Source: an uncultured Myxococcia bacterium (GTDB taxonomy: Bacteria; CAZTWC01). From it: a stretch of DNA of 29,225 bases. The position numbers were made by a program, and so were the translations under genes. Below, in pieces: positions 5,354-29,225 of the stretch. The first letter of the stretch is position 1. Every line of letters begins with the position of its first letter. The notes beneath the pieces were generated by a model. It saw nothing but the letters and a program-made list of their open reading frames with translations. It was not told the DNA's origin and ran no database searches. The stretch spans positions 1 through 29,225 of the forward strand of contig CAZTWC010000013.1 in the NCBI GenBank assembly GCA_964617105.1. The letters are read 5' to 3'.

Positions 5354-5390
5354 ATCGTTTATCCTGCCTGATGTTCTACTGTACTGTGCA

Positions 5391-6500
5391 CTACTTACCT
5401 TTGCCCAAAAACTCTTTTATTGAATCGAATATCCCATCTTTACCTTTAATTTCCGAGGTGACAAGATTTTCATTGTCCGAAAGATGCTGACCCAACTCTT
5501 TGATAAACTGGCCACTGCCGTATTGGCTTTCCACCTGGCCATAACAGAACATGTTTACCTGAGCCAACATTTTTTCTTTGAGTAATTTGATACAAACACT
5601 GGAATCATCGGTTGACCAATTGTCGCCATCGGAAAAGTGAAAGGGGTAGATATTCCACTCAGAGGGATTGTAATCTTCGTCAATAATTTTATCACATAAT
5701 TTATAGGCACTGCTGATCATGGTTCCGCCGCTCTCCCGGGTGTGGAAAAAAGTTTCTCGATCCACCTCCCTGGCCACGGCGTCATGGATAATATAGCGGG
5801 ACTCGATCCCTTCGTAGTTGGCGGACAACCAGGTTTCTATCCAAAAAGATTCTATCCGCACAATTTCCTTTTGCTCTTCACCCATAGAGCCAGAAACATC
5901 CATCATATAAATAATAACCGCGCTGGAAGTGGGTATCCTGGTGATCCGGATTGCCCGGTAACGCTTGTCTTCCCGGTGAGGAATCACCATCGGCCGCTTG
6001 GGGTTATAGGTACCGCTGGCAATTTGGCGCTGCAAGGCTTGGCGGTAAGTTCGTTTGAAATGGCGCAGGGATTCGGGACCGGCTGTATATACACCGGTAT
6101 ATTTCAACTTTTCGGCGATGATATTCTTTTTCCCCTTGGGTTCGATGCGGGGCAGTTCCAACTCTTCACCCATAATTTCAGCCAACTCCTCCAGAGTGAC
6201 ATCCACTTCCAAAACATGTTCGCCCGGCTGATCGCCCGCCTCCTTACCATCGCCCGGTTGCACCTGTCCCGGCTGCAGGACCTGTCCCTCCTCACCGTCT
6301 CCCTGCCCGACTCCACCAGTATTTTTATGGCCAAAACGAAATTTGGGGATCTCAATCTGTGGCAGGGGAATACTGACTATATCTTTCCCCTTTTTGCCCA
6401 GCAGTTCCCCTTTGGTAATATACTTTTTAAGATTTTTTTTGATCCTGCCCTTAATGATTTCTTTGAAGCGGCTGTGATCTTGCTTAATTTTTTGTACCAT
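5391..6500 (-). CDS. YeaH/YhbH family protein (DUF444) with a C-terminal vWA-like domain
   Basis: The 369-aa product has ...[34 protein letters not shown]... and a MIDAS-like [15 protein letters not shown] typical of UPF0229/YeaH. It sits between prkA and spoVR, as in the conserved prkA-yhbH / yeaG-yeaH arrangement. Confidence 0.8.
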
Positions 6501-6510
6501 GGTTTTTTAT

Positions 6511-6656
6511 TGCATCCGCATTATTACCTATTAATTTAAGAATGTGGAGGCGCTCGGATAACTAGGCGCCGTTTCTAAAATCACAGCAGGCGTATGATAA
6601 TACGTCGAGGATAATTTTAGAAACGGCAACAACGTTAGCCGAGATGCATCCGCATT
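6511..6656. repeat. Structured intercistronic element between prkA and the yeaH-like gene. A 12-bp direct repeat TGCATCCGCATT (6511-6522 and 6645-6656) flanks a perfect 13-bp inverted repeat CCGTTTCTAAAAT / ATTTTAGAAACGG (6569-6581 / 6614-6626).
   Basis: All repeats were read directly from the sequence. One direct-repeat copy lies 4 nt after the prkA stop and the other 11 nt before the yeaH-like ATG. The inverted repeat would form a 13-bp stem with a 32-nt loop in the operon mRNA. No SD sequence precedes the yeaH-like start. Confidence 0.35.
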
Positions 6657-6659
6657 CTT

Positions 6660-8729
6660 CTACTTGTCTTCTTTTATGTCGCCTCGGGCAAATATACTCG
6701 CCACAAAATTCAGCACATCAGTAGCGCAAATTTCGCAATAGCCGTATCCATCGATCAACCGCTGTTTGACTACATCAATTTTCTCCTGGGTATCTTTGTC
6801 CACCACTGCACTCACCAAACTTTTCAACTTGATGGTGTCTTTCTGGTCTTCAAACAATTTCAACTCCAGCGCTTTTTGCAGCCTCTCGTTGGTGCGATAA
6901 TCAAATCCCTTACCATCCACAGCCAGGGCACCGATGTAGTTCATTATTTCGCGTCTGAAATCGTCTTTGCGTGATTCCGGAATCTCAATTTTTTCTTCAA
7001 TAGAACGCATCAGTCTCTCATCAGGCTCCTCGTATTGGCCGGTGTATTTGTTTTTAATCTTCTCTTTTTGAGTGTAGGCTTTTACATTGTCGATATAGTT
7101 GCTGCACAACTTGGTGATAGCGTTTTCATCGGCGGAAATTGCTTTTTGTACTTCATTTTTAATGATATCTTCATATTCCTGTTTCACCACATTTAGCAAA
7201 TCGCTATAATGCTTACGCATATCCTTGCTGGTGACCAAAGAGTGGTGTTTCATACCGGCTTCCAATTCATTTAAAACCAGGAAGGGGTTAATACAGCCTT
7301 CCGCTTTGTCGCTAACCAGGGAATTGGACATTTTATCCTGCACGTAACGAGGGCTTATCCCCTCCATTCCCTCGCGCTCCGTTTCTTTACGCAACTCTTT
7401 AATATTATCTTCTGTAAAGCCGCTTAAGGTTTTTCCATCGTAAAGTTTTAACTTCTGCAACAGGGTAAGGTTGTGTTTTTTGGGCTCTTCCAGCCTGGTG
7501 AGCACCGCCCACATGGCAGCCATCTCCACGGTATGGGGAGCAATGTGTTTTCCCTTGATTCTTTTGGTGTTAAAATCTCTGGAATAGATTTTGATCTCTT
7601 CTGAGAGTTTGGTGATATAGGGAATATCTACTTTGATGGTCCGATCACGTAAGGCTTCCATGAACTCATTGTTCTGAAGTTTTTTAAATTCCGGTTCATT
7701 GGTATGGCCGATGATCACTTCGTCAATATCGGTCTGAGCAAATTTTTTCGGTTTAATCTTATGCTCCTGGGTGGCCCCCAAAAGGTCGTATAGAAAAGCT
7801 ACATCCAATTTGAGGATTTCTATAAACTCAATAATACCCCGGTTGGCTATATTAAATTCACCATCGAAATTAAAGGCGCGGGGATCGGAGTCAGAACCAT
7901 ACTCGGCGATTTTGCGATAATTGATATCACCGGTCAATTCGGTGGAGTCCTGATTTTTCTCATCTTTAGGCTGAAAGGTGCCTATACCGCAGCGGTCTTT
8001 TTCGCTCAAGATCAACCGGCGCACGGTAATATGCTTGATCACTTTGCTCCAGTCGCCGTTGTACCGCTTGCTTAACTCGCTGAAAACATAGCGGCAGGCC
8101 GGGCACAACTCGCCGGTATTGGGAATAAGATACTCCTTGTTGCCCAATCCCAACTCGTTAAAAACCCTATCACGCCATTCCGCTGGAATCAGATGGATTG
8201 GGTCCTCGTGCATGGGGCAATTCATGATTTCTTCAACATCTTTACCATCCAAATTTTTACGCATAAATTTCCAGGTAAAAGTGTACATGGTCCCTTCCGG
8301 TATTTTACTGTAATCTTCCCGCCCTTTTTTCATCAATCTGGCGATAGTGCTCTTAGAACTTCCCACCGGGCCGTGGAGTAAAATTACCCTCTTTTCTGGT
8401 CCATATTGGTTGGCGGCTGATTTAAATACATTTACCAGTTTCATTAGAGAAATATCCAGGCCATAGATTGCATCGGCGCCACCAAATTTTTCATCTTTAA
8501 AAAAATTGTAACTAACAATCTTCTTTTTATTGTCCATATACTCGGTTTTACCATAGGAGGTGATCATATCGTATAGATGCTGAAATGCTGTCCTGGTAAC
8601 CCGGGGATTTTCTTTGACAATCTGCAGGTAATCCTCAAAATTTCCTACCCAGTTCAGCTCCTGGTACTGCCTGGTGTCCTGTAATTTGGCAATAACATCT
8701 AACATTGTTTTTTTTGCAGACCTAGCCAT
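6660..8729 (-). CDS. prkA: PrkA family serine protein kinase (AAA+ ATPase N-terminal domain plus C-terminal kinase domain)
   Basis: [56 protein letters not shown]... and the Walker [11 protein letters not shown] are typical of PrkA/YeaG. I moved the start from the track's 8807 to the ATG at 8729 (complement of 8727-8729). That ATG is preceded by AAAGGAGG 8 nt upstream. The longer ORF adds 26 non-conserved residues and has no RBS. Confidence 0.85.
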
Positions 8730-8823
8730 AAGTATTTTGCCTCCTTTAAATATAAAGATCTGGATATAATAATTTTCTTGACTTTTCCCGGAACACTCAC
8801 CCCACAAATAATTTCAAACTAAC

Positions 8824-9191: not shown

Positions 9192-10280
9192 ATGAATAAA
9201 AACCATCTTCCATTGGAACAGTACGAACCATTTTTCACCTCTTTTCAATCTGGGGTACTGGTCTGCCAGTTTAACGGCAAAATAGTGTATTTAAACCCGG
9301 CCGGGGAAGAGATACTTGAATACTCCAAAACAGAACTCCAATCCAGGAACCTTAACGATATTCTCAGCCCAGAGGAAAAAAAGAGGGTGGCCCGGATTAT
9401 GTCCAGAATAATTAACCGGGAAAAACTGAACTCCTTTGAATCCCTGGTAGTCAGCAAATCTGGCTTGAAGATGAGATTGCATTTTTCTATCAATACCCTG
9501 TTTTTAAACCAGCAGCATATTATCCTCTTGTTTGACGATATCACTCAGGCCTGGGTGCTAAAAGTAGAACGGGAAAAGACTAAATATTTTTTGGAAAATT
9601 TAGTCAACTCCTCGGTGGATGCTATTATTTCCGCCGACATGAATGGCTACATCACCTTTTTTAATCGGAGTGCTACCCGAATATATGGTTTTGCTGCAGA
9701 AGAGGTGGTGGATAAAATGCATGTTGCCCAACTATACTTCCCAGGGGAGGCGAAAAAAGTGATGCAAATGCTGCGCAGCAAAGAATTCGGCGGCGTGGGC
9801 AAACTCAATTCCATAGAACAATATGCCTTAAGTCGGGCAGGGGAAAAAATTCCAATTAGAATGACGGCGGCGATTATTTATAATCAAGAGCAAGAGATAG
9901 GAACCGTGGGGATTTTCAGCGATATGCGGGAAAAACGGAAAATGGAGGAAAAACTACAAACTGCCCAAAATAAATTGCTCATTCATGAAAGGCAGATTGC
10001 CATGGCCGAACTGGCGGGCGCCACTGCCCATGAATTAAACCAGCCGCTCACCGTGTTATTGGGCTCCTTTGAACTTTTAGAAATGGACTTAGCCCAGGAT
10101 GACCCACTTAGAAAAGAGTTAAAAGTGATCGAGCAGGAGTTGGAACGGATATCCAATGTAGTAAAAAAAATCGGCCAATTAACCCACTATGAAACTAAAT
10201 CTTACGTTGGTCAGACCACTATTGTGGACCTGGAAAAGTCATCTACTTCGGAGGACCAAGATATTATCGATAATCCTTAA
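9192..10280 (+). CDS. PAS-PAS-HisKA protein: a sensor histidine-kinase fragment with an H-box but no HATPase_c catalytic domain
   Basis: Two PAS-like segments are present (…VYLNPAGEEILEYSKTEL… and …SVDAIISADMNGYITFFNRSATRIYGF…). A coiled-coil/HisKA region follows: ERQIAMAELAGATAHELNQPLTVLLGSFELLEM. The ORF ends ~90 aa later with no N/G1/G2 boxes. Aspartate kinase starts 25 bp downstream, so there is no room for a lost ATPase domain. Confidence 0.7.
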   Translation: MNKNHLPLEQYEPFFTSFQSGVLVCQFNGKIVYLNPAGEEILEYSKTELQSRNLNDILSPEEKKRVARIMSRIINREKLNSFESLVVSKSGLKMRLHFSINTLFLNQQHIILLFDDITQAWVLKVEREKTKYFLENLVNSSVDAIISADMNGYITFFNRSATRIYGFAAEEVVDKMHVAQLYFPGEAKKVMQMLRSKEFGGVGKLNSIEQYALSRAGEKIPIRMTAAIIYNQEQEIGTVGIFSDMREKRKMEEKLQTAQNKLLIHERQIAMAELAGATAHELNQPLTVLLGSFELLEMDLAQDDPLRKELKVIEQELERISNVVKKIGQLTHYETKSYVGQTTIVDLEKSSTSEDQDIIDNP

Positions 10281-13358: not shown

Positions 13359-14759
13359 ATGGCTTTTCGAATCCTCATTGCTGATGATGAAGAAGATTCA
13401 AGGGAAACTTTTTCCCAGTTTTTTACCAAGAGTGGTTACGATGTAGAAACAGCGGACAACGGTTTTGATGTGATCTTGCGAGTGAAACAACAAGACTACC
13501 ACCTGCTGCTTCTGGATAATATTATGCCTGGCAGCAATGGGGTGGAGGTGTTAAAATATTGTCAAAAACACAAACCAGACTTGCCAATTGTTCTATACAG
13601 CGCCCATGCCAAAATGGAAGATGTGGTCTCCATAATGGAGAAGGGTGCCCAAAAATTTTTCCCTAAAGAAACGGCCCTGGCCACCATGGAAAAACATATT
13701 GCCGAAATATTGACCAATAAATACCAACAAATGAAACCGGAGTCGGAAAACGATTCCCAAACCCCTGCCACCGGCGACTGCCACTATCTTGATATGATTG
13801 GCGATGACCCCAAGATGAAAAAGATTTTCGGTATTATCGAACGAGTTGCCAAGACCGAAAGCACGATATTGGTTACCGGGGCAAGCGGTACCGGCAAAGA
13901 GTTGGTAGCCCGGGCAATTCATACCAGAAGCAAACGAGGTAAAGGACCCTTGGTACCGGTAAATTGCGCTGCCATCCCCGATACGCTTTTAGAAAGCGAA
14001 CTGTTCGGCTATGAAAAAGGGGCTTTTTCCGGTGCAGTAAAATCCAAACCTGGACGTTTTAAAATGGCGGACAAAGGTACCATCTTTCTGGACGAGATAG
14101 GAGATATGCCGCCTTACCTACAGGTAAAATTGCTGCGGGTGCTGCAGGACAAATCATATATTCCCCTGGGAGGCATCCAGGAGATGAGCGCCAACTTCAG
14201 AGTGGTTTCCGCCACCAATAAAGATTTGGAAAAGGAGATCGCCGAGGGAAACTTCAGGGAAGATCTATATTTCCGTCTCAACGTAATTCCAATTAGTATT
14301 CCACCTCTGCGGGAACGACGGGGAGACATCCCTTTGCTGATAAACAGTTTTTTAAACAAAATAAATAATAACGAAGACTTATCAGTGGAAGGGGTAGAAA
14401 AAGAGGTTATGGAGAAATTGTTCCGTTACGATTGGCCGGGCAATGTTAGAGAACTGGAAAACATGGTGGAAAGAATGATGATTTTTCGCGGGGAGGGAAA
14501 TATTCTCCTGGAGGATGTTCCGCAAAAGATCTTGGGCAACCAATCTGGCAAAGATGAGACCCCATCAATGGAAGTGGGTGAAGATGGCATAGATTTCAAC
14601 CAGGTAATAAGTGAGATGGAAAAAGACCTGATCTTACAGGCCTTGGAACAAACTGGATGGAATAAGAACAAAGCAGCCAGCCTGCTCAATTTGAATCGAA
14701 CGACTCTGGTGGAAAAAATAAAAAAGAAAAAATTAAAGCCCTCTTCTGAGGATAATTGA
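13359..14759 (+). CDS. Sigma54-dependent response regulator, NtrC family (REC + AAA+ sigma54-interaction domain + C-terminal Fis-type HTH)
   Basis: The REC domain has the acceptor Asp in HLLLLDNIMPG. Walker A is VTGASGTGKE. The GAFTGA-type loop reads GAFSGA. ...FRLNVIPISIPPLRERRGDIPLL... is typical of the family. The C-terminal HTH is KNKAASLLNLNRTTLVEKIKK. Confidence 0.85.
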   Translation: MAFRILIADDEEDSRETFSQFFTKSGYDVETADNGFDVILRVKQQDYHLLLLDNIMPGSNGVEVLKYCQKHKPDLPIVLYSAHAKMEDVVSIMEKGAQKFFPKETALATMEKHIAEILTNKYQQMKPESENDSQTPATGDCHYLDMIGDDPKMKKIFGIIERVAKTESTILVTGASGTGKELVARAIHTRSKRGKGPLVPVNCAAIPDTLLESELFGYEKGAFSGAVKSKPGRFKMADKGTIFLDEIGDMPPYLQVKLLRVLQDKSYIPLGGIQEMSANFRVVSATNKDLEKEIAEGNFREDLYFRLNVIPISIPPLRERRGDIPLLINSFLNKINNNEDLSVEGVEKEVMEKLFRYDWPGNVRELENMVERMMIFRGEGNILLEDVPQKILGNQSGKDETPSMEVGEDGIDFNQVISEMEKDLILQALEQTGWNKNKAASLLNLNRTTLVEKIKKKKLKPSSEDN

Positions 14760-14909: not shown

Positions 14910-15200
14910 ATGGCTGATGCATTAGGTATGATTGAAACTAGAGGTTTTGTCGGTATGGTTGAGGCATCTGACGCAATGGTAAAAGCAGCTCGAGTGGAGT
15001 TGGTAGGCTATGAAAAAATTGGCGGCGGTTTTGTAACCGCATTGGTCAGAGGTGATGTAGCGGCGGTCAAAGCGGCCACCGAGGCTGGTTCCAGAGCGGC
15101 TGAACGAGTTGGTGAACTGGTTAGCGTCCACGTTATTCCTCGTCCCCATGCTAATATAGATCTCGTGTTACCCCTGGGCAGAAAAAACCAGGTATCTTAA
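14910..15200 (+). CDS. BMC-H shell protein (hexamer-forming, PduA/EutM-like, Pfam00936 domain)
   Basis: [60 protein letters not shown]... is a canonical BMC-domain sequence. The RBS is GGAGG. Confidence 0.9.
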
Positions 15201-15253
15201 TGATATCCTGAATTATTTCTGGCGCAAAGGGCAAGGGGAGGCAAAAGAGAAGG

Positions 15254-15559
15254 ATGTTAATCGGAAAAGTTATCGGTACTGTGGTGTCAACCCGCAAGGA
15301 AGAAACTTTGAAGGGGTTGAAGTTTTTGCTGCTTAGACCAACGGATGAAGCGGGAAAACTAAAAGCAAAAGATGATCCGGTGGTAGCCGCAGATGCAGTA
15401 GGCGCCGGAGTTGGAGAATTGGTGCTTTATGCCACTGGCAGTGCATCCAGGCAGACTCATCTCACCGATGAACGGCCGGTTGATGCAGTAATTATGGCCA
15501 TTGTAGATATGATTGATAAAGACGGCAACATTTCCTATAATAAGGCGGAGTCTGAGTAG
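15254..15559 (+). CDS. BMC-P vertex protein (pentamer, EutN/PduN/CcmL family)
   Basis: MLIGKVIGTVVSTRKEETLKGLKFLLLRP...VAADAVGAGVGELVLYATGSASRQ is typical of EutN/CcmL. The product is 101 aa. Confidence 0.85.
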   Translation: MLIGKVIGTVVSTRKEETLKGLKFLLLRPTDEAGKLKAKDDPVVAADAVGAGVGELVLYATGSASRQTHLTDERPVDAVIMAIVDMIDKDGNISYNKAESE

Positions 15560-15702
15560 TTTTAATTGTTTGTGGTTCTGCCTTAATTTTCCTTACCAAA
15601 CTTAGTCTTCTTCTCTATATTTCTGAAAATTCCCTTATTTTTTATCTGAAACTTTAACTTGTCTATTATATCTTTAACCAATTTATTACATGGAAACACA
15701 AA

Positions 15703-16005
15703 ATGGATGCAAAATTTTTTGAAGAGTTGAGCCTGGAACAGTGGAGCCAATGCCGCAATCAGTTGATTACCTTATCGCAGGACCAAAAAGCCCTGGCTGA
15801 TTTTATTGCCGAGATGAGCCAAAAAATCCCTTTGGCCGGTGAAATATGGAAAGCCATCCGGTTAAATACGGCTCAAAACCAAAAGCAGGAAGGCGAAGAG
15901 AAAGAAAATAATCCCAACCAGGACAAATTGATCGAAATGAGCGGAGATTTAAACTTTTTTTGTTTCCTTTACTCGCTGGGAAAACAGGCGAAAATTTGGG
16001 AATAA
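15703..16005 (+). CDS. Hypothetical 100-aa protein inside the BMC operon. It is predicted helical with an acidic/polar middle and a hydrophobic C-terminus, and shows no recognisable family.
   Basis: The ORF is in operon orientation. It follows a 143-bp CT-rich spacer and ends 20 bp before the aldehyde dehydrogenase ATG. Its RBS is weak (GGAAA). I could not match it to PduL, PduV, EutJ or any other known BMC accessory. Confidence 0.4.
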   Translation: MDAKFFEELSLEQWSQCRNQLITLSQDQKALADFIAEMSQKIPLAGEIWKAIRLNTAQNQKQEGEEKENNPNQDKLIEMSGDLNFFCFLYSLGKQAKIWE

Positions 16006-16025
16006 AATTATGGGAGTATAAAAAA

Positions 16026-17495
16026 ATGCACCTGGACGAAAAAAGGATAGACGCCATTGTGGAAAAAGTGGTGAGTAAATTGGCCGGTGAACAGATGGCT
16101 AAACCATTAGGGATGAAACCAGTTTCCAGCCATGCAAGCGCTAACGCCTCTCCGTCTCTAGTAACCGGAAAATATTTCTCCGGTCCTGGTCAGGTGGGGG
16201 TATTTCCCGATATGGATTCTGCCGGTGAAGCAGCCGGCAGAGCCCAGGAACAATTGGTAAAACTTCCTTTGCAGATGCGAATCAGAGTAATTGAGGCTAT
16301 GCGGGAGGTATCCAGGCAACACAACCGTGAACTAGCCGAGATGACGGTAAAAGAGACCGGGATAGGTAGAGTGGCGGACAAAATAAATAAAAATCTGCTG
16401 GCCATAAATAAAACTCCTGGGGTGGAAGACTTGAAACCCATCGCCTGGTCTGGTGATGACGGCTTGACCCTGGTGGAGCGGGCGCCTTACGGGGTGATTG
16501 GCTCTATAACTCCCTGCACCAATGCGACTGAAACTATTATATGCAATGCCATTGGCATGATAGCCGGTGGAAATGCTGTCATATTTAATGTTCACCCTGC
16601 AGCCAAGAATATTTCCAATTACTATATCTCTCTGTTAAACAAAGCCATTGTGGCGGTGGGCGGACCGCCAAACCTGCTATGCTGCATTAAAGAGCCCACT
16701 ATCCAAAGCGCCCAGGCCCTGATGAGCCATCCTGCCATCAGGTTATTGGTGGTCACCGGCGGTCCAGCAGTGGTAAAAGTGGCCATGCAATCAGAAAAAA
16801 AGGTGATCGCCGCCGGACCGGGTAATCCTCCAGCGGTAGTGGATGAAACTGCTCACATTGAAAGGGCGGCCCAAAATATTATCAAAGGCGCCTCCCTGGA
16901 TAACAATATTGTCTGCGTGGTAGAAAAAGAGTTCATTGCGGTCAGCGATATTGCCGATATGCTAAAACAGTATATGCTGCGGTACGGTGCATACGAAGTT
17001 ACCGGGCGACAACTGGCCCGACTGGAAAAAGTGGTGTTAAAAGGAGATGGGGTTAACAAAGATTGGGTTGGGAAAAATGCCAACCGGATTTTAGATCAAA
17101 TTGGGATATCTGCTTCCGATGACCTACGCTTGATATTCTGCGAAACCTCAGAAGACCATCCCTTTGTGCAGCACGAATTGCTGATGCCGGTGGTGCCTCT
17201 TATTCGAGTATCTCATGTGGACGAAGGGATTGCCATGGCCAAAAGGGTGGAGCACAATTTCAGGCATACCGCCTGTATCCACTCCACCAATATCGAAAAA
17301 CTACACAAAATGGCGGTGGTTATGGACACGTCTATTTTTGTTAAGAATGCACCCTCTTACGCCGGACTGGCTCTGGGCGGCGAGGGATACACCTCTTTTA
17401 CTATCGCCAGTCCCACCGGCGAAGGGCTTACCTCTGCCAAAGACTTTACCAGAGTGAGACGCTGCGTGTTAAAGGACTACTTCCGGATCGTTTAA
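16026..17495 (+). CDS. CoA-acylating aldehyde dehydrogenase (PduP/EutE-like) with an N-terminal BMC encapsulation peptide and linker
   Basis: The start was moved to ATG 16026, which has a GGGAG RBS ~10 nt upstream. The track ORF from 15960 adds 22 residues that overlap the upstream gene. The N-terminus MHLDEKRIDAIVEKVVSKLAGEQ is an amphipathic helix. It is followed by a ~45-aa G/S/P-rich linker. The core contains ITPCTNATETIICNAIGMIAGGNAVIFNVHP and the catalytic-Cys block LDNNIVCVVEKE, as in EutE/AdhE-type acylating ALDH. Confidence 0.85.
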   Translation: MHLDEKRIDAIVEKVVSKLAGEQMAKPLGMKPVSSHASANASPSLVTGKYFSGPGQVGVFPDMDSAGEAAGRAQEQLVKLPLQMRIRVIEAMREVSRQHNRELAEMTVKETGIGRVADKINKNLLAINKTPGVEDLKPIAWSGDDGLTLVERAPYGVIGSITPCTNATETIICNAIGMIAGGNAVIFNVHPAAKNISNYYISLLNKAIVAVGGPPNLLCCIKEPTIQSAQALMSHPAIRLLVVTGGPAVVKVAMQSEKKVIAAGPGNPPAVVDETAHIERAAQNIIKGASLDNNIVCVVEKEFIAVSDIADMLKQYMLRYGAYEVTGRQLARLEKVVLKGDGVNKDWVGKNANRILDQIGISASDDLRLIFCETSEDHPFVQHELLMPVVPLIRVSHVDEGIAMAKRVEHNFRHTACIHSTNIEKLHKMAVVMDTSIFVKNAPSYAGLALGGEGYTSFTIASPTGEGLTSAKDFTRVRRCVLKDYFRIV

Positions 17496-17500
17496 TTATC

Positions 17501-18838
17501 ATGCAAAAAAATCGCCTGATTAAGTTGGTTGAGGAGGCTGGCGTTGTTGGAGCCGGCGGGGCAGGTTTTCCCTCTCATCTAAAGATATCATCTAAAGTTG
17601 ATACGGTAATCGCTAATGGGGCCGAGTGTGAACCGCTCCTATATACTGACCAGACCGCCATGATTGAACAAACGCGCGAATTAGTGGCTGGATTGGAGAT
17701 GGTGGTTAATATCACTGGCGCCCAAAAAGGGATCATTGCGCTTAAAAGCGTCTATCAAGACTGCATCAAAAAATTAAAGGCCGCGATAAAGGGAAAAAAT
17801 GGGATTGAACTATTTTTGTTAGAAGATTTTTATCCTTGCGGAGATGAGCATGTTCTCACCTTTGAAGTTACCGGCAGGCTGGTTCCTCAGCGGGGAATCC
17901 CTCTGGAAACCGGGGTGCTGGTGCACAACGTCACTACCCTGATCAATATTTATCATGCCAGCCATGGTCAAAAGGTGGTGGATCGAGCCCTTACCGTTAC
18001 CGGAGAAGTAAAAAATCGCGGCGTGATTAAAGTGCCTGTAGGGACATCAATAAAAGAGGTGCTGGCTCAATGCGGCGGCCCTACAGTTCATCCCTTTAGA
18101 GTGATTTGCGGCGGACCGATGATGGGAAATGAGGAGGAAGATCTGCTTCAATCCGTAGATAAACTCACCGCCGGCCTGATAGTTCTGCCGGCTAACCATC
18201 TTTATTTTACGTTGAGAGGTGCGGAGAGTAAAAAGGCCCAGGGTTACCTTAGCCGGGCCACCGCCTGTATTCAGTGCAGCGACTGCACTTCTCTTTGCCC
18301 CCGTTATTTACTCGGGCATCAAATTCAACCTCATATCTTGATGCGCAATATCACCTTCTCTGGCCCAGATCCCCAAAAGGGCTCTCAGGCTTTGCTATGC
18401 TGCCAGTGTGGTCTTTGCTCTCTCTACGCCTGCTCCCAGGGCCATTCCCCCCGCACCCTGTGTATCCAACTAAAAGAGATGGGCGCCAGTCAAAATATCG
18501 AGCCGCCCGTAAAGATGGTGCCGCCCGCAGTGCGAGAGGGACGTAACTACAAAAAGGTCCCCAAACTAAACCTGGTCAGGGCTCTAAAATTAGAGAAATA
18601 TTACCATCCGTTAAAAACCATTATTCCCAATGAAAATTGGACCAGGGTTCGGATAAAAATGCTGCAGCATTTTGGCCAACCAGCCAAATCAATAGTAACT
18701 AAAGGAGAGATGGTAAAGAAAGGGCAAACCATTGCCCAAATGGCTTCAAAACAATTAGGTGCCAACATCCATGCCTCTATTTCCGGCCAGGTAGTAAAAG
18801 CGAACCGGAATGAAGTGGTGATAAAAAAGGTTAAATGA
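17501..18838 (+). CDS. PduS-like RnfC/NuoF-family Fe-S flavoprotein (BMC-associated oxidoreductase)
   Basis: The N-terminus ...VVGAGGAGFPSHLKI...VIANGAECEPLLYTDQ matches the RnfC/PduS nucleotide-binding region. There are two 4Fe-4S motifs: CIQCSDCTSLCP and CCQCGLCSLYAC. The start is 6 bp after the ALDH stop. Confidence 0.8.
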   Translation: MQKNRLIKLVEEAGVVGAGGAGFPSHLKISSKVDTVIANGAECEPLLYTDQTAMIEQTRELVAGLEMVVNITGAQKGIIALKSVYQDCIKKLKAAIKGKNGIELFLLEDFYPCGDEHVLTFEVTGRLVPQRGIPLETGVLVHNVTTLINIYHASHGQKVVDRALTVTGEVKNRGVIKVPVGTSIKEVLAQCGGPTVHPFRVICGGPMMGNEEEDLLQSVDKLTAGLIVLPANHLYFTLRGAESKKAQGYLSRATACIQCSDCTSLCPRYLLGHQIQPHILMRNITFSGPDPQKGSQALLCCQCGLCSLYACSQGHSPRTLCIQLKEMGASQNIEPPVKMVPPAVREGRNYKKVPKLNLVRALKLEKYYHPLKTIIPNENWTRVRIKMLQHFGQPAKSIVTKGEMVKKGQTIAQMASKQLGANIHASISGQVVKANRNEVVIKKVK

Positions 18839-18902
18839 CAGTGTTCACAGGAAAATTAACTGCCATATGAAATTTGGACAAGCAAAGAACTGAGGAAAAA
18901 AG

Positions 18903-19457
18903 ATGTCTTATAAAGATCCCGCCATCGGCATGATAGAAACTTTGAGTATAGCAAAAGGGATGGTGGCCTGTGACACTATGGCTAAAAAAGCCCCTGTCAG
19001 CGTACTCCAGGCCCACAGCATCTGCCCGGGAAAATTTTTAATTATCATCAATGGCGAAGTTTCTGAGGTAGAAGAGTCTATGATGGTGGGAGAAAATAGT
19101 GCGGACCACTACCTGGTAGACAAACTCTTTTTACCCCATGTCGACCCCCAGGTAGGGCCGGCTATTACCCGCACCAACCATATAGAAACTATAAAATCGG
19201 TAGGAATTATAGAAACCTTTACCGCTGCTTCAATAATTTATGCGGCTGATGCTGCCGCCAAGTGCACATCCATAAAACTGATAGATATCAGAATAGCCAA
19301 TGGACTGGGGGGGAAATCCTACCTGACCTTAACTGGTGAGTTGTATGAGGTTGAGGCCTCCATTAAGGCTGGAGTTGAAAAGATCGACACCGGACTTTTG
19401 GTGCAAACCGAGATTATTCCCGCACCCCACCCAGATTTTGTGGCACATCTGTTCTAG
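18903..19457 (+). CDS. BMC-T shell protein (tandem BMC domains, PduT-like) with the conserved pore cysteine
   Basis: The 184-aa product has two BMC domains: AIGMIETLSIAKGMVACDTMAKK...SICPGKFLIIINGE and VGIIETFTAASIIYAADAAAKCT.... It closely parallels Salmonella PduT, including the Cys in the sICPGKF loop that ligates a 4Fe-4S cluster at the trimer centre in PduT. The RBS is GAGGA. Confidence 0.85.
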   Translation: MSYKDPAIGMIETLSIAKGMVACDTMAKKAPVSVLQAHSICPGKFLIIINGEVSEVEESMMVGENSADHYLVDKLFLPHVDPQVGPAITRTNHIETIKSVGIIETFTAASIIYAADAAAKCTSIKLIDIRIANGLGGKSYLTLTGELYEVEASIKAGVEKIDTGLLVQTEIIPAPHPDFVAHLF

Positions 19458-19502: not shown

Positions 19503-20180
19503 TTATCCCCGCAGAGGGGTGCGGCATTTCATACAGAAATTGCTCTTTTCGGTGAGCATCACCTTGTTTTGACAGGATGGACACTGGACGGTGAGTAATC
19601 CCTTCATGGTTTCAATCGCTTCCAAGGCAATCTGGCTGGCCGAAGGGTCTTGATCCACGTAGGCCATCAACTTTGTCAACCTCTCTAAGATCGGCACAAA
19701 TTTAAACTTGGTGCCAATCTCTAAATAGGCTCTCTCCTTGGCAGGCAAACTCTCAGCCTTGGCTGATTCGCCCTTACGGTCATGAATCAATTTTTTGATT
19801 TTGGATAGCAGGACATTGGGATTAAACTCATCGCTCTTAACAATATAATCGTCAGCACCCAAATTTTCGATTAAATAGACAATGTCGTTTTTGGAACGCA
19901 CTGCTGTGTACATAATAACCGGTAAATTTTTAAAAGTGGAATGAGGTCCCTTGAGTAATTTCAAAAGTCCTCTACCATCTATACTCCCGGGCATCTCTAC
20001 ATCCAGGATAAGACAATCGAATACAAACCCGCGCTTTTTGCCGTCTAAGAGTTTCATGTAGGCGCCGTGACCGTTCTCAGCCTCTTCTACCTTAAAATCC
20101 TCTTTTATCAGAAAAGTAGATAAAACTTTTCTAACCAGGGGCTCATCGTCCACTACCAGGATGCTATATTGGTGTACCAT
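19503..20180 (-). CDS. Response regulator receiver (REC) protein with a C-terminal double-CxxC zinc ribbon. It has no classical DNA-binding output domain.
   Basis: The REC domain has ILVVDDEPLVRK... and the acceptor Asp in CLILDVEMPG. The C-terminus reads ...TVQCPSCQNKVMLTEKSNFCMKCRTPLRG. The RBS is GAGGGAG. It is convergent with the BMC operon. Confidence 0.75.
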   Translation of the reverse strand: MVHQYSILVVDDEPLVRKVLSTFLIKEDFKVEEAENGHGAYMKLLDGKKRGFVFDCLILDVEMPGSIDGRGLLKLLKGPHSTFKNLPVIMYTAVRSKNDIVYLIENLGADDYIVKSDEFNPNVLLSKIKKLIHDRKGESAKAESLPAKERAYLEIGTKFKFVPILERLTKLMAYVDQDPSASQIALEAIETMKGLLTVQCPSCQNKVMLTEKSNFCMKCRTPLRG

Positions 20181-23643: not shown

Positions 23644-23907
23644 CTACCATCTGCGGGGTCTACTGTCTCTTTGTCTGGGGGGTCTGGCCTCATCTACGTT
23701 CATGGTGCGGCCCATCAACTCAGTACCGTTCAGTTCTGTTTTGGCAGTTTCTGCTTCGGACTGGCTGGACATCTCCACAAAGCCAAAACCTTTACCATCG
23801 ATAATTTTAACGTCCAACACTTCACCATGATTGGTAAACAGTTCAGTTAACTGTTCTCTAGTTACTGCATAATTTAAATTTCCAACAAACAATTTCCGTC
23901 CTTGCAT
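23644..23907 (-). CDS. RRM-domain RNA-binding protein (glycine-poor, with an Arg-rich tail)
   Basis: MQGRKLFVGNLNYAVTREQL...KGFGFVEMSS... carries RNP2 (LFVGNL) and RNP1 (KGFGFVEM). The start was moved to ATG 23907, which has a GGAGG 6 nt upstream. The track's longer ORF adds 24 residues without an RBS. Confidence 0.8.
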   Translation of the reverse strand: MQGRKLFVGNLNYAVTREQLTELFTNHGEVLDVKIIDGKGFGFVEMSSQSEAETAKTELNGTELMGRTMNVDEARPPRQRDSRPRRW

Positions 23908-24242
23908 CTTAACCTCCAAATGCTTCAAAAAAATAAAATCACCAAAGATGTTCTTAATCAGAGGTGATGATAGCAACAAAAGAGCAATACAAAGACCTCA
24001 AACTACAAACACTGGCGCAGAAAATGATAACGATACAGAGATCTTTATCATTTGTCAACAAAAAAATAACCGCGCGGCAATTTAACAATTTACATCAAAA
24101 AACCGCAACTACCTGAGTATGTAGCAGGGGGTATCTTCCTCCGTCCTCAAAGCAATTGCTGATTTTAGATGATATTTTTTAAAAGTTGAGATAGGATATC
24201 CTTATCTTTAAACTTGCAACAAAACTATGGAACTCTGTTATT

Positions 24243-24983
24243 ATGCCCAAAAGCCTTGTGTTCAAATTACTGCTGCCTGGCTTAATTTTTATCATAAATG
24301 TCATAAATCCCATGGCTCATGCTGACAGCCATTTGGGCAAAATGTCAACATCCAACCCCACTATTACCAAGGTTACTAAGGGAAATCGGACAGGCAAACT
24401 ACTCGAGAAATTGAAAAGCGAAATCATCTTTACCAGGGGTATGGTCAATGGAATTAGTACTAATTCAAAAATCAAGGCTAAACTTAATAAGCACCTAAAA
24501 AACAGTCTAAAACTAATCAAGGCCCTGGAAAAACATTACGCTTCAACCGTTGGCAATAATGATCCCTGCCAACCCACCCAGGGAGCCAAGATATTAGTTG
24601 TTGACAAAGAGAACTCCAAAACCGAAACCCTGGAGGTAAAATCGGCACAACCTGTTCCGGCTATATTGGCCCCAGCGCCAGTTCCTGCCGCTGAATTTAT
24701 TGATATTGTCGGCCGCTTGGATGAAACCAATTTTGCCGACCACCGGCTGCAATTACTGCAGTCACTATCGGATCAAAATTTCAGCGTGGTTCAATTGGTA
24801 AAAATATTAGACCGATTTCCCTTTGCTGATGATAGAATAAAAGCGGTGTTGATTATCTATCCCAGGTTGGTTGATAAGTCCAGATTGTACCAGGTTTACA
24901 GTACTTTTCCCTTTAGTACGGATCGGGAAAGATTAAAAAAAGAGATCAACCAATTACAAAAACCAACCAATTCAAAAAAATAA
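24243..24983 (+). CDS. Secreted protein with an N-terminal signal peptide and a C-terminal DUF4476-like domain
   Basis: MPKSLVFKLLLPGLIFIINVINPMAHA is a signal peptide. The C-terminus ...FADHRLQLLQSLSDQNFSVVQLVKILDRFPFADDRIKAVLIIYPRLVDKSRLYQVYSTFPFSTDRERL... resembles the DUF4476 repeat pattern (F..D.L....K.....F...Q...L...F.F...KL...). This match is from memory only. Confidence 0.45.
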   Translation: MPKSLVFKLLLPGLIFIINVINPMAHADSHLGKMSTSNPTITKVTKGNRTGKLLEKLKSEIIFTRGMVNGISTNSKIKAKLNKHLKNSLKLIKALEKHYASTVGNNDPCQPTQGAKILVVDKENSKTETLEVKSAQPVPAILAPAPVPAAEFIDIVGRLDETNFADHRLQLLQSLSDQNFSVVQLVKILDRFPFADDRIKAVLIIYPRLVDKSRLYQVYSTFPFSTDRERLKKEINQLQKPTNSKK

Positions 24984-25003
24984 CTCAATTCTCAGGTGCG
25001 CCT

Positions 25004-26254
25004 ATGTACACAGTAATGCTGGTGGATGACAACAAGATGTATCGGCAGGCTTTTACCCGCTTTTTAGAGATGAACAATTACCAGGTGGTAGAGGCTGAAA
25101 ATCGAGATGAAGCAATGACTAAAATCAGGGAACAGGTACCGGAAGTGGTTATTACCGACCTGGAGATGCGTTCCCGGGAAGAGGGCCTCCAACTGATCCG
25201 GGATATCCGCTCTTTAAAACCCTTTATCCCCATAATAATGATCAGCGCAGTGGGAACTTTTGAAGAGGGAGCCAAGGCCATAGAACTTGGAGCCAACCAG
25301 GTAATAAGCAAAAGCAGAATAGACCAGGAAATAGACTATCTCTATTCCACCATAGATAACGCCATGGCGGAGTATAAACGAAAAAAAAGCCTGCTGGCGT
25401 TGGTTAGGGATATGCGGGAGAGGCTTAACCGCGGCGAAACCAGGGAAGAAGACCGGGAGCAGTTGTCCAAAATTATCGATGATAAACAAATGGATGAATA
25501 TATCCGGACCGAAGCCTATGATGCACTACTCCAATTCAGGGACAGACAATTTCTGGATAAACCCCTTAAAACCGTTGATGGATGGGAAGAGATATCCAGA
25601 GAAATAGTCCAGGAAATTGGCAAAAAAATCCACAACTTTAGCCAGGCAGACCAGGAGACCAAACGAGTCTTTATCACGGCTGAGTATATGTTCAATCAGC
25701 AAGAACAAGAAAAAGGGATGGATATCGATTTTTCTCGCAACATTGCCTTTTCTTACGCCTTTGCCGTGGAAAATGAAGTTAAGTTAAAGATGAAAAGTCG
25801 CATGGTTTCCATGTTGAAAAACCGGGCATTCTTAAAAATGGTTAACCGGCTATACGATGAGAAATTAAAAAACGTAGATCTTTTCCTACACCAGTATCTG
25901 CTGCAATTGATGCGGGGAAAACATATCAATATCACGATAGATAATGTCAGGCATACCCTCCAATATATTTTGAAATTAGAGGGGAGGTACCGGCCCGATG
26001 GATTAAAAGCCGTGGGAACCTTATTGTTACTATTTGCTCGTAATTATGAGGTAATAACCAGAAAAGGAATAGTCAAAATTAAAAATCCAATGGGAATCCA
26101 CACCAACAGTGAAGAAGTCTTAGAACTTGCCAAAGATCTGATTAACCTACAGCATTTTCGCAATCCTTACATACATCCGGATGTGAGCGAAACCGAAAAA
26201 CTTGGGCAAATACGCACTATAGCAAAATCATGTTTACTAAAACTGCTTATATAA
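25004..26254 (+). CDS. Response regulator with an N-terminal REC domain and a ~290-aa uncharacterised all-alpha C-terminal domain that ends with a HEPN-like RNxxIH motif
   Basis: The REC domain has MLVDDNKMYRQ... and the acceptor Asp in VVITDLEM. The C-terminal part has no HTH, GGDEF, CheB or ANTAR features. RNPYIH lies ~26 aa from the C-terminus and is followed by a predicted helix. The RBS is AGGTG. Confidence 0.7.
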   Translation: MYTVMLVDDNKMYRQAFTRFLEMNNYQVVEAENRDEAMTKIREQVPEVVITDLEMRSREEGLQLIRDIRSLKPFIPIIMISAVGTFEEGAKAIELGANQVISKSRIDQEIDYLYSTIDNAMAEYKRKKSLLALVRDMRERLNRGETREEDREQLSKIIDDKQMDEYIRTEAYDALLQFRDRQFLDKPLKTVDGWEEISREIVQEIGKKIHNFSQADQETKRVFITAEYMFNQQEQEKGMDIDFSRNIAFSYAFAVENEVKLKMKSRMVSMLKNRAFLKMVNRLYDEKLKNVDLFLHQYLLQLMRGKHINITIDNVRHTLQYILKLEGRYRPDGLKAVGTLLLLFARNYEVITRKGIVKIKNPMGIHTNSEEVLELAKDLINLQHFRNPYIHPDVSETEKLGQIRTIAKSCLLKLLI

Positions 26255-26311
26255 TGAAGTAAGGATTAATTCCGGCAACATTTCACCTTTTTACATAGCC
26301 AGGACTCTGTT

Positions 26312-28276
26312 TTGCCTAAACTAGAAAGCCGTTTTTCCAGTAAGACCTCTAAGAAAGAGTTGCCTGCATCCTACGGGCGAGTTAGTTTTGTCAGGCGTAG
26401 TCTACCTGGTTTTCTGATCAATTCTTCCATGATTATCATTACCGCGCTGATGGTTATTATCTTCAACTATCAATTCTACCGGCCGGCCAAGGAAGTGATC
26501 ATTTCTGAAGTGGTTAATGAATTTATGGCGGAAACCCATTCCAAGAATCTGCCTTTCTGGATCAGGTTGGTTGATGACTATATTGTTATGCGCAAAAACC
26601 GGCATGATCACCCGTTGCTGATGAAAAAACTGGAAGAGATGGCCATAGAAATTCTATTTGATAAATCCCCCATATTTCGGCTTCAAATTGTAGATAACGG
26701 AGGTATGTTAATCTCGACTTATGATAATTATCTAAAATATGAAGAGAGCAACTCCTTGAAATATAATCTTCTATTTTCTTTTGAGAACAGTTTTATTGTT
26801 AAAAGTAACCTGGGGAAAATTGTTTTCTTTTATACCAATCCCGTTAACGAGAAAAAAATCATCTCCCTTACCACCAAGTGGCAATCGGTGATTCTGCCGA
26901 TGGTAGTAATAATCCTGGTGTTCCAGATTCTCTTTAATCTCCGGGTGGTCATCCCCCTTAAAAAGGTGGTGTCTTATTTGGAAAAGCCACGTTCTTCGGT
27001 CGATTCTCTCATTGACAATCCGGTCACTCTTCTGGAAAAACTGTATAACCGCAAGGCTCGGGATTCGATTTTATGGCGAATAGAATTATTGCTAGGCGAT
27101 TTTATCTCCAGCAATAAAGATCTCACGGTAGACAGTTTTTTCCATAAACTGCCCCGGCTGTTAAATGATATTTTTCCTGGTTTTATTTTTTCCTGTTACC
27201 GCAATTTCACCACTATTTTTGACAGCCAAACCAGAAACCAACTACAGGAGAATGGTAAGCCCCTACTCAAGGAGGAACTCTATCTGATCCACACCGATCT
27301 TTCCCGGCAAAATATCAAGTATGCCCTGCTTTTTCCTATCTTCTTTCAAGACAGAATTTACGGTTTTGGTCTGCTGGATATGAATAAAAATAACTACTAC
27401 CGTTTCCCCTTGCTGGTCATGGAGACCATAGGACTAATCGGTAACCAGATTGGTATCTCCTGCAATTACATTGATATCCAGCGTAAGTTGATAATGAAAG
27501 AGAAGAGCCTGGCCAATATCAATTTGGCCAAAAATCTAGGCCATGACCTGACCAATATTATAGCTTCGGGCAAACTGGAATTAATGGCAATAACTTCCTA
27601 CATGAAAAATATCGAGAAAAAAGAAACGGTTAACCGGCAAGATAGCCTCTTTATAAACGCCATCAATAACCTAAAAAATAACATTAAATTCCTCCAGGAA
27701 ATAGTTAACATCTATCGTTCCTATACCTATATTCATTCGCCAAAATTTGAATCGATAAATATCTTTCAAACCATTGAAGAGTTGCTTGAACTTTTCAGGC
27801 TCACCACATCAGGTGATATTAACTTCAACCTGGACAGTGGAGGAAAAAACATCATAGCCAAGGTAGAGCCCCGCTTGCTAAAATTGGCAATGTTTAATAT
27901 TATCACCAATGCTGTGGACTCAGTCAAAGCGCGGCAAATTAACGAGGTAACCCGAGGAGAGATCTATATTTCTATAAGTTCCTGTACCTCGGAAAAATGC
28001 TTTGAGATTAAAACCAGGGACAATGGTCAAGGCATTCTTGATAAAGAGGGGAATGAGTTGTCTCCAACTCAGATCAGTCGAATTTTTAATTTTGGCTATT
28101 CAACTAAAGATTCCTCTTTAAAGGGGGAAGGACTGGGATTAAGTTGGGTTTTGGCTATAGTGGATGAATTTCATTGTGGGCAAATAAATGCTGAAAATAA
28201 CCAGAATCTTGGCAGCACCTTTACTATAAAGTTGCCCATTAATCGTCTGCAAGAATGTTCTCACCTGGATTCCTGA
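26312..28276 (+). CDS. Sensor histidine kinase (membrane-anchored, with a large N-terminal sensor region, HisKA and HATPase_c)
   Basis: TM helices are IIITALMVIIFNYQ and VILPMVVIILVFQILF. The H-box is LAKNLGHDLTNII. The N-box is NIITNAVDSV. The G-boxes are DNGQGI...GLGLSWVLAIV...GSTFTIKLP. The start is TTG 26312 as given by the track; an alternative ATG lies at 26429. Confidence 0.8.
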   Translation: MPKLESRFSSKTSKKELPASYGRVSFVRRSLPGFLINSSMIIITALMVIIFNYQFYRPAKEVIISEVVNEFMAETHSKNLPFWIRLVDDYIVMRKNRHDHPLLMKKLEEMAIEILFDKSPIFRLQIVDNGGMLISTYDNYLKYEESNSLKYNLLFSFENSFIVKSNLGKIVFFYTNPVNEKKIISLTTKWQSVILPMVVIILVFQILFNLRVVIPLKKVVSYLEKPRSSVDSLIDNPVTLLEKLYNRKARDSILWRIELLLGDFISSNKDLTVDSFFHKLPRLLNDIFPGFIFSCYRNFTTIFDSQTRNQLQENGKPLLKEELYLIHTDLSRQNIKYALLFPIFFQDRIYGFGLLDMNKNNYYRFPLLVMETIGLIGNQIGISCNYIDIQRKLIMKEKSLANINLAKNLGHDLTNIIASGKLELMAITSYMKNIEKKETVNRQDSLFINAINNLKNNIKFLQEIVNIYRSYTYIHSPKFESINIFQTIEELLELFRLTTSGDINFNLDSGGKNIIAKVEPRLLKLAMFNIITNAVDSVKARQINEVTRGEIYISISSCTSEKCFEIKTRDNGQGILDKEGNELSPTQISRIFNFGYSTKDSSLKGEGLGLSWVLAIVDEFHCGQINAENNQNLGSTFTIKLPINRLQECSHLDS

Positions 28277-28352
28277 ACAATCTTATGATTTGACGTTTTG
28301 TTTTTCCTTGATTTCCCGGTAAAATAATGTTAATAACCATGGGACATAATAT

Positions 28353-28429
28353 GGTGGATGTAGCTCAGTTGGTAGAGCACCGGGTTGTGGCCCCGGTTGT
28401 CGTGGGTTCGAGCCCCATCATTCACCCCA
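28353..28429 (+). tRNA. tRNA-His (anticodon GTG) with a genomically encoded G-1 and 3' CCA
   Basis: The cloverleaf was folded by hand. The acceptor stem is GTGGATG/CATTCAC with a G4-U69 wobble. The D-arm is AGCTCAGTTGGTAGAGC. The anticodon stem-loop is CCGGG-TTGTGGC-CCCGG, with GTG at positions 34-36. The T-arm is GTGGG-TTCGAGC-CCCAT. The discriminator is C73, pairing with the extra 5' G at 28353. CCA is at 28427-28429. Confidence 0.85.
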
Positions 28430-28482
28430 AACTAGTACTTTGTACAACACTATCAGCCTTTTTTGCTCCGGCAATTAAGGCT

Positions 28483-29225
28483 GTGTTTATTTTTATCCTG
28501 TTAGTGTCCGTTCAAATGACACTAATATCAACCGCGGCCGCTAAACAACATCCATCAGATAATCTTTGGCAAACCCTTAAGGTGGGAATGGTTGAATTCC
28601 ATTTTCATTCTGAAGACCAAAAAGCGGTTACCTCTTTGCTGAACAATGCCGATCAATATATCCAAGTTATTTTATCCCACCTGGAACTGAATGCGCCTAA
28701 AGGTCAGGTCACCGTAAAAATAGCAACCAATATGGAGGAGTTTCTCAACCTGCAGCCCGGTCAATACCAGGCCCCTTTTTGGGCAGCGGGTATATCTTAT
28801 TCCCGTTTGAACCTGATAATCTTGCAGGTAAAAGGAGGGAAGGAAGACCGCGTTCGAGATATTGAAACTGTTTTTAGGCATGAATTCGCTCACCTGGCCC
28901 TATTTTGGGCAGCCGGGGAAAAAATAACTATTCCCCTCTGGTTCAATGAAGGTTACGCCATGTTTGAAGCCGATGAATGGGGCTTCGGTTGCATCTCTAC
29001 CTTGATGAAGGCTTCTGTGGCAGATCGGCTTTATACCTTGGCTGATCTGACCAACAATTTTCCTCGCGATACCAGGGAGGTTAATGTTGCCTATTGCCAA
29101 AGTATAGATTTTTTTAGTTATTTTATGCAAGAATACCAGTTGGCCGGTTTCAGAAAATTAATGGGATTTATCCTGCAAGGAATAAGTATTGAAGATGCTA
29201 TTTACCGCTCCACCGGTATCTCTCT
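28483..29225 (+). CDS. Secreted peptidase-MA-like (Peptidase_MA_2 type) zinc metalloprotease; the 3' end runs off the window
   Basis: The translation has a hydrophobic N-terminus (VFIFILLVSVQMTLISTAAA|KQ). It then reads ...FRHEFAHLALFWAAGEKITIPLWFNEGYAMFEAD..., an HExxH motif plus a downstream NEGxA glutamate-zincin-like motif. The reading frame is open back through the tRNA, so the true start (GTG 28483 or ATG 28516) is uncertain. Confidence 0.55.
   Translation, partial: MFIFILLVSVQMTLISTAAAKQHPSDNLWQTLKVGMVEFHFHSEDQKAVTSLLNNADQYIQVILSHLELNAPKGQVTVKIATNMEEFLNLQPGQYQAPFWAAGISYSRLNLIILQVKGGKEDRVRDIETVFRHEFAHLALFWAAGEKITIPLWFNEGYAMFEADEWGFGCISTLMKASVADRLYTLADLTNNFPRDTREVNVAYCQSIDFFSYFMQEYQLAGFRKLMGFILQGISIEDAIYRSTGIS

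Follow-up and report, generated by a model that had tools for sequence, protein, structure and literature searches.

What does a response regulator do when its receiver domain is followed by about 300 residues that belong to no known output family? The question is raised by a gene near the end of a stretch of 29,225 nucleotides (nt) from an uncultured Myxococcia bacterium (contig CAZTWC010000013.1, assembly GCA_964617105.1), which was analyzed as a whole and is referred to here as the window. Known outputs of response regulators are DNA binding, RNA binding (ANTAR), cyclic-nucleotide enzymes, methylesterases, phosphatases, and protein partners. The answer we favor, with a probability of roughly 0.55, is that the protein carries an insert-bearing HEPN effector with an intact predicted active site, and that kinase-triggered dimerization would lead to RNA cleavage. 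The gene and the parts of its product are as follows.

25004..26254, + strand: complete gene of the response regulator (receiver plus predicted HEPN domain), 416 amino acids (aa) plus stop, ATG start
25013..25318, + strand: receiver (REC) domain, residues 4-105, Pfam PF00072 Response_reg, E=3.6e-22
25319..25627, + strand: helical linker region, residues ~106-208, from the AlphaFold2 secondary structure
25640..26251, + strand: predicted HEPN-fold output domain, residues ~213-416, also found as a stand-alone protein
25769..25783, + strand: E256-N-E-V-K260, matching the E-x3-[KR] motif of HEPN domains, inside helix 244-272
25820..26107, + strand: large insert, residues 273-368, between predicted HEPN core helices 2 and 3
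26159..26176, + strand: R386-N-P-Y-I-H391, predicted catalytic Rx4H motif

An AGGTG-like Shine-Dalgarno element precedes the ATG of this open reading frame, and a protein in public metagenomes (P0001) is 100% identical to its product. A sequence-only reading of the same DNA had proposed a canonical REC domain with no standard output domain behind it, and both points were borne out. The REC domain contains the acidic pocket D8/D9, the phospho-acceptor D52 (codon 25157-25159), S81, and K103. All five residues are invariant in an alignment of 110 sequences that are 35-44% identical to the window regulator. The REC part of the AlphaFold2 model shows the alternating beta/alpha pattern of the receiver fold, so that both the fold and the acidic pocket, Asp, Ser/Thr, and Lys expected of a response regulator are present. 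No Pfam, NCBIfam, or PADLOC family was found in the ~300 residues after it.

The structure of this C-terminal part was predicted by AlphaFold2 using the family alignment. The full-length model reached a predicted local distance difference test score (pLDDT) of 89.2, and a model of residues 205-416 alone reached a pLDDT of 92.9 and a predicted template modeling score (pTM) of 0.89. Nearly all residues after REC are helical in the model. Of the earlier description of this region as all-alpha and charged, the charge held (32%), but a beta-hairpin at residues 347-360 means that it is not strictly all-alpha. A long linker helix (110-142) extends alpha5 of REC, and the hydrophobic periodicity of the 110 sequences shows that the a/d heptad pattern of residues 106-137 is conserved. 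Behind it lie two to three more helices, in which the motif E-A-[YF]-D (170-173) is conserved.

By the published definition (PMC3710099), a HEPN domain is a bundle of four helices, and an insert often separates helix 2 from helix 3. The R of its Rx4-6H motif is followed by a polar residue, in most cases N, D, or H, and many HEPN domains also have an E-x3-[KR] motif in an N-terminal helix near the active site. The predicted C-terminal domain is a four-helix up-down bundle resembling solved HEPN structures. The motif F-R-N-P-Y-I-H-P-D, which had been noticed near the C terminus, is present as F385-D393, with H391 as the 26th residue from the end and N387 as the polar residue after R. The sequence-only reading had staked its case on this motif lying within a four-helix bundle, and the model places it there, where core helix 3 runs into the loop that precedes helix 4. 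According to DSSP analysis of the model, helix 369-386 ends with R386, residues 387-395 form a loop that begins with N387 to H391 and leads to the last helix, and this last helix spans 396-415. E256-N-E-V-K260 falls in helix 244-272, an N-terminal core helix, and the insert 273-368 separates core helices 2 and 3, the assignment of the core helices being itself derived from motif positions. The insert is modeled as four helices and a beta-hairpin and carries the family-specific conserved motifs R-Y-[RK]-P-D-G-L-K-A-x-G (329-338) and N361-P362. The strong conservation of these motifs suggests that the insert may provide an added surface for a substrate or a partner.

R386-N-P-Y-I-H391 is the sole Rx4-6H match in the window regulator. 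From amino acid composition, ~1.7 Rx4-6H matches would be expected by chance (0.03 for R-N-x3-H), and the Rx4-6H motif alone is therefore weak evidence for a HEPN domain. The weight is carried by its conservation and position. Invariance of R and H among homologs had been set as a check, and R, N, and H were found in 110 of 110 sequences. R386, N387, P388, H391, P392, E256, R245, G333, and K335 are all invariant in this alignment, and position 260 is K in 107 of the 110 sequences and R in two more. In a scan of GTDB (one genome per species), the search was seeded with the motif and the best 80 of 98 confirmed matches were kept; motif invariance in these 80 loci is thus partly circular, and it is the nonseeded searches that provide independent evidence. 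All nonseeded matches spanning this region read Q-[HQY]-x-R-N-P-[YF]-[IV]-H-P-[ED]. Distant relatives also keep R-N-x3-H: it reads RN[GR]F[IA]H in P0051 and P0060-P0062, where it stands behind a coiled-coil N terminus, and RNPAAH in P0053.

Profile and structure searches gave no support to a HEPN assignment. No match to the Pfam HEPN clan was obtained at E<=10 for 17 family members, and NCBIfam, PADLOC, and PHROGs contained no family for the C-terminal domain (the protein and 17-18 members were searched). With the full-length alignment, PDB sequence searches returned nothing but REC matches, and with the alignment of the C-terminal domain nothing above chance level. A comparison with the HEPN domain of Escherichia coli RnlA by hhalign was not significant (probability 0.9%), and a remote profile search with a diversified alignment (E<=10) recovered nothing beyond the family itself and its coiled-coil subfamily, and no Pfam-annotated HEPN family. 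Foldseek, which had been suggested as a check, gave no significant match: the best E values were 0.29 (PDB) and 0.67 (BFVD), and none of the matches was a HEPN structure. Since fold and motifs agree with HEPN and sequence profiles do not, the domain is best called a new HEPN family that is an orphan by sequence. Judged from the model, it very probably has the HEPN fold. The fusion of REC to HEPN that had been proposed is supported computationally by the architecture, the invariant residues, the model fold, and the placement of the motif.

The regulator is flanked on the same strand by two genes.

26312..28276, + strand: sensor histidine kinase, 654 aa, C-terminal HATPase_c (E=3.6e-14), starting 57 nt downstream of the regulator
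24243..24983, + strand: DUF4476 protein, 246 aa, ending 20 nt upstream of the regulator

The first confirms that a kinase is encoded immediately downstream, as had been claimed. Its H-box is NLGH411DLTN (H411 codon 27542-27544), and it has an N-terminal hydrophobic segment and a second one near residues 190-215 that looks by eye like a transmembrane helix. Kinases adjoining family members elsewhere are 28-30% identical to it and align over the whole length, and the alignment takes in motifs of the sensor region as well as the segment that follows the second hydrophobic stretch; we therefore predict that regulator and kinase are a dedicated cognate pair. The DUF4476 protein has a hydrophobic N terminus, signal-peptide-like by eye. 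Its gene, which is absent from the gene clusters common to at least 10 other family loci, is probably cotranscribed with the regulator, and the protein could be an accessory of the kinase. A promoter and terminator scan of 23900-28700 detected no terminator above chance between the DUF4476, regulator, and kinase genes. Promoter and terminator counts being at chance level, the operon structure rests only on the short same-strand gaps.

Phosphorylated receivers commonly dimerize. In the proposed pathway, the membrane histidine kinase would sense a signal, probably an envelope-related one, and phosphorylate D52 of REC. Phosphorylation would promote dimerization via the receiver and the heptad-patterned helix that continues it, and two HEPN domains would then meet as in the canonical HEPN dimer, with their Rx4H motifs facing each other. 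The facing motifs would form a metal-independent endoribonuclease site (R386, N387, and H391 plus E256 and K260), and the output of the pathway would be RNA cleavage, not transcription. The active form of HEPN RNases is a dimer that brings two Rx4-6H motifs side by side, as shown for RnlA (PMC8266594). We infer RNase activity, a dimerization-based switch, and RNA targets: the HEPN domain is somewhat more probably catalytically active than inactive, and control of the domain by a dimerization switch has a little less than an even chance.

The family is rare: a search of 5.8 billion proteins yielded 18 clusters, and a full HMMER scan of 1.84 billion proteins, made without motif seeding, yielded 38 representatives. 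The best 80 of the 98 GTDB matches come nearly all from metagenome-assembled genomes of Sumerlaeota (BRC1), and all 80 loci carry the REC fusion. Because each match is from a different assembly, the REC-HEPN gene is single-copy in Sumerlaeota. The window regulator is at most 47% identical (best segment, in the C-terminal domain) to any GTDB species representative, which indicates that the window comes from a divergent lineage without a representative of its species in that set. In ~40 of the 80 GTDB genomes, an orthologous kinase gene lies immediately upstream of the regulator, often overlapping it, and is usually preceded by LolA and LptE; the kinase also adjoins the regulator in metagenomic loci. 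The order in the window, regulator and then kinase, is inverted relative to L004, L005, L010, and these ~40 GTDB loci, nearly all Sumerlaeota loci having kinase and then regulator after LolA-LptE. In ~15 genomes, GFO oxidoreductase genes are found upstream and a GT1 glycosyltransferase gene downstream.

Ten of the 80 genomes have a GNAT-regulator-RNase J block with no kinase gene within 5 kb (for example, L041, L061, and L086), and synteny with RNase J is thus established for one clade. Blocks of GNAT, the HEPN-like protein with or without REC, and RNase J were also seen at L093:2381-4985, L094:539-2155, and L007:4391-7856, and the small GNAT acetyltransferase of the three-gene block ends in ...PHK[IV]WNECILCPKFEDCGEV... 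The HEPN-like domain also occurs in stand-alone forms of 214-255 aa. P0022 is probably a truncated gene call, since no more than 80 nt separate its start from the end of a contig. The same explanation was rejected for P0016 and P0059, as a GNAT gene abuts both and leaves no room for REC. These two REC-less proteins fill the same slot between GNAT and RNase J, which indicates that the RNase J association belongs to the HEPN-like domain itself. A diverged subfamily (P0051, P0060, P0061, P0062, and P0063) has an acidic coiled-coil N terminus in place of REC. The P0062 gene (L012:4199-7164) directly follows and overlaps a GmrSD_N (DUF262) gene, with PLD, MZB (DUF1998), and helicase genes adjoining, and the two products may be an undescribed defense effector pair. 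Both the RNase J slot and the GmrSD_N context fit a nucleic-acid-cleaving module. The LolA-LptE and RNase J linkages suggest envelope- or stress-linked RNA decay as a possible role of the regulator.

A HEPN fold could also serve without cleaving RNA. The domain might be a phosphorylation-controlled module that binds RNA, nucleotides, or proteins, as do the HEPN domains of sacsin and Roquin, MtlR, and the C-terminal domains of nucleotidyltransferases, and it would then act by sequestration or by binding a partner such as RNase J or envelope-biogenesis factors. Noncatalytic HEPN lineages have typically lost the Rx4-6H motif wholly or in part (PMC3710099), whereas all homologs, distant subfamilies included, retain R, N, H, and the E of E-x3-K without exception; moreover, REC control could itself stand in for an antitoxin. 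We consider a nonnuclease role unlikely. The reverse possibility is an active HEPN RNase that brings about suicide or dormancy in the manner of abortive-infection systems or toxins, with the kinase detecting envelope damage or phage attack and the effector degrading RNA globally. Most bacterial HEPN RNases indeed work in defense or toxin-antitoxin systems (PMC3710099), and the genes around the REC-less P0062 are in keeping with such a function, but this distant form is the only one that sits in a defense-like island. The REC-fused family is single-copy and syntenic phylum-wide beside LolA, LptE, RNase J, and glycosyltransferase genes. The window is ordinary chromosome (sugar transferase, SpoVR-DUF444-PrkA, NtrC-type regulator, microcompartment, PMT_2 glycosyltransferase, and RRM protein genes), and no mobile or defense genes and no defense island were seen near the regulator, nor an adjacent MNT or RnlB-like antitoxin gene. 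A PADLOC match to SduA would point toward defense; it was rejected as evidence because it is nonspecific and covers residues 3-155, that is, REC and the linker, and the C-terminal domain matches no PADLOC model. A suicide effector is accordingly quite improbable, and a kinase-controlled HEPN RNase in regulation is the reading that we retain.

Several other genes of the window were recorded. A small RRM-type RNA-binding protein (23644-23979, - strand; PF00076, E=2e-19) is encoded close to the regulator on the opposite strand, and a tRNA-His gene (anticodon GTG; 28354-28429, + strand) lies 78 nt past the stop codon of the kinase gene. The three-gene cluster SpoVR/DUF444/PrkA (3848-8807, - strand), which we take to match the conserved stress module of the yeaG-yeaH-ycgB type, is adjoined by a CotH kinase-like gene (1922-3727). 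An NtrC-type sigma-54 activator gene (13359-14759) is directly followed by a bacterial microcompartment cluster (14910-19457, + strand), in which Pfam identified an aldehyde dehydrogenase, an RnfC/Nuo51-like flavoprotein, and a tandem-BMC protein; two small open reading frames resemble, by eye, a BMC-H shell protein and an EutN/CcmL-like protein. Two further proteins resemble signaling components. One, of 362 aa (9192-10280, + strand; the next gene encodes aspartokinase), has two PAS domains and HisKA without HATPase_c, which makes it a kinase without a catalytic domain or else a phosphotransfer or phosphatase-only protein. The other is a second response regulator of 224 aa (19503-20180, - strand), whose ~95 C-terminal residues have no Pfam match.

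How does the proposed regulator compare with known systems? In Ire1 and RNase L, a kinase or pseudokinase domain is followed by a KEN domain, and the RNase is active only as a dimer. The window regulator would share with them a sensor-driven switch, dependent on phosphorylation or dimerization, N-terminal to a HEPN RNase, with RNA cleavage as the output; the KEN domain has been classed as HEPN (PMC3710099). Csm6 likewise has a sensor domain followed by HEPN. However, the signal in Csm6/Csx1 (CARF-HEPN) is a cyclic oligoadenylate ligand and not phosphorylation, and the context is CRISPR defense rather than housekeeping. The proposed mode of action is most like that of Ire1/RNase L and Csm6, whereas the predicted structure is closest to RnlA/LsoA-type and small HEPN domains. 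The RNase LS toxins RnlA and LsoA differ in having N-terminal TBP-like domains and in being controlled by protein antitoxins (RnlB and Dmd). HepT-MntA (HEPN/MNT) is a small mobile two-gene module in which a partner nucleotidyltransferase inhibits by AMPylation, in contrast to phosphorylation of a fused receiver. Among response regulators, those of the ANTAR type (AmiR, NasR, and EutV) also act directly on RNA and not on DNA, but they bind RNA hairpins to prevent termination, do not cleave, and have an unrelated fold. PorX, one of the enzymatic response regulators, is a REC-PglZ protein whose receiver is joined to an enzyme of the phosphodiesterase type with oligonucleotides as substrates (PMC12839542); its PglZ domain has an alkaline-phosphatase-like, metal-dependent fold and not a HEPN fold. 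No receiver-HEPN fusion was reported in the HEPN survey (PMC3710099) or in full-text literature searches, whose scope left out many subscription-journal papers, so that an earlier description is possible; literature matches for 'hepN' were mostly to an Anabaena gene of that name, irrelevant to this fusion.

We tentatively propose, as a possibility that we rate below even odds, that this would be the first two-component pathway with RNA cleavage as its direct output. A histidine kinase would phosphorylate REC-HEPN and thereby switch on the HEPN endoribonuclease by dimerization; the gene would be fixed as a single copy across Sumerlaeota, linked either to LolA-LptE and the kinase or to GNAT and RNase J; and envelope or stress signals would lead to the decay of targeted RNAs, the cleavage products of which RNase J would clear. 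As a new output for response regulators and a new regulatory input for HEPN, REC-HEPN is supported computationally, pending biochemistry. If true, direct phosphorylation-gated RNA cleavage joins the outputs of two-component signaling, and a bacterial HEPN RNase has been recruited to housekeeping regulation with a control logic parallel to that of eukaryotic Ire1/RNase L. The small phospho-switchable RNase could also serve as a tool. The finding defines a HEPN family that sequence profiles fail to detect, and for Sumerlaeota, a phylum of the uncultivated majority, it provides a signature gene and a tractable regulatory module.
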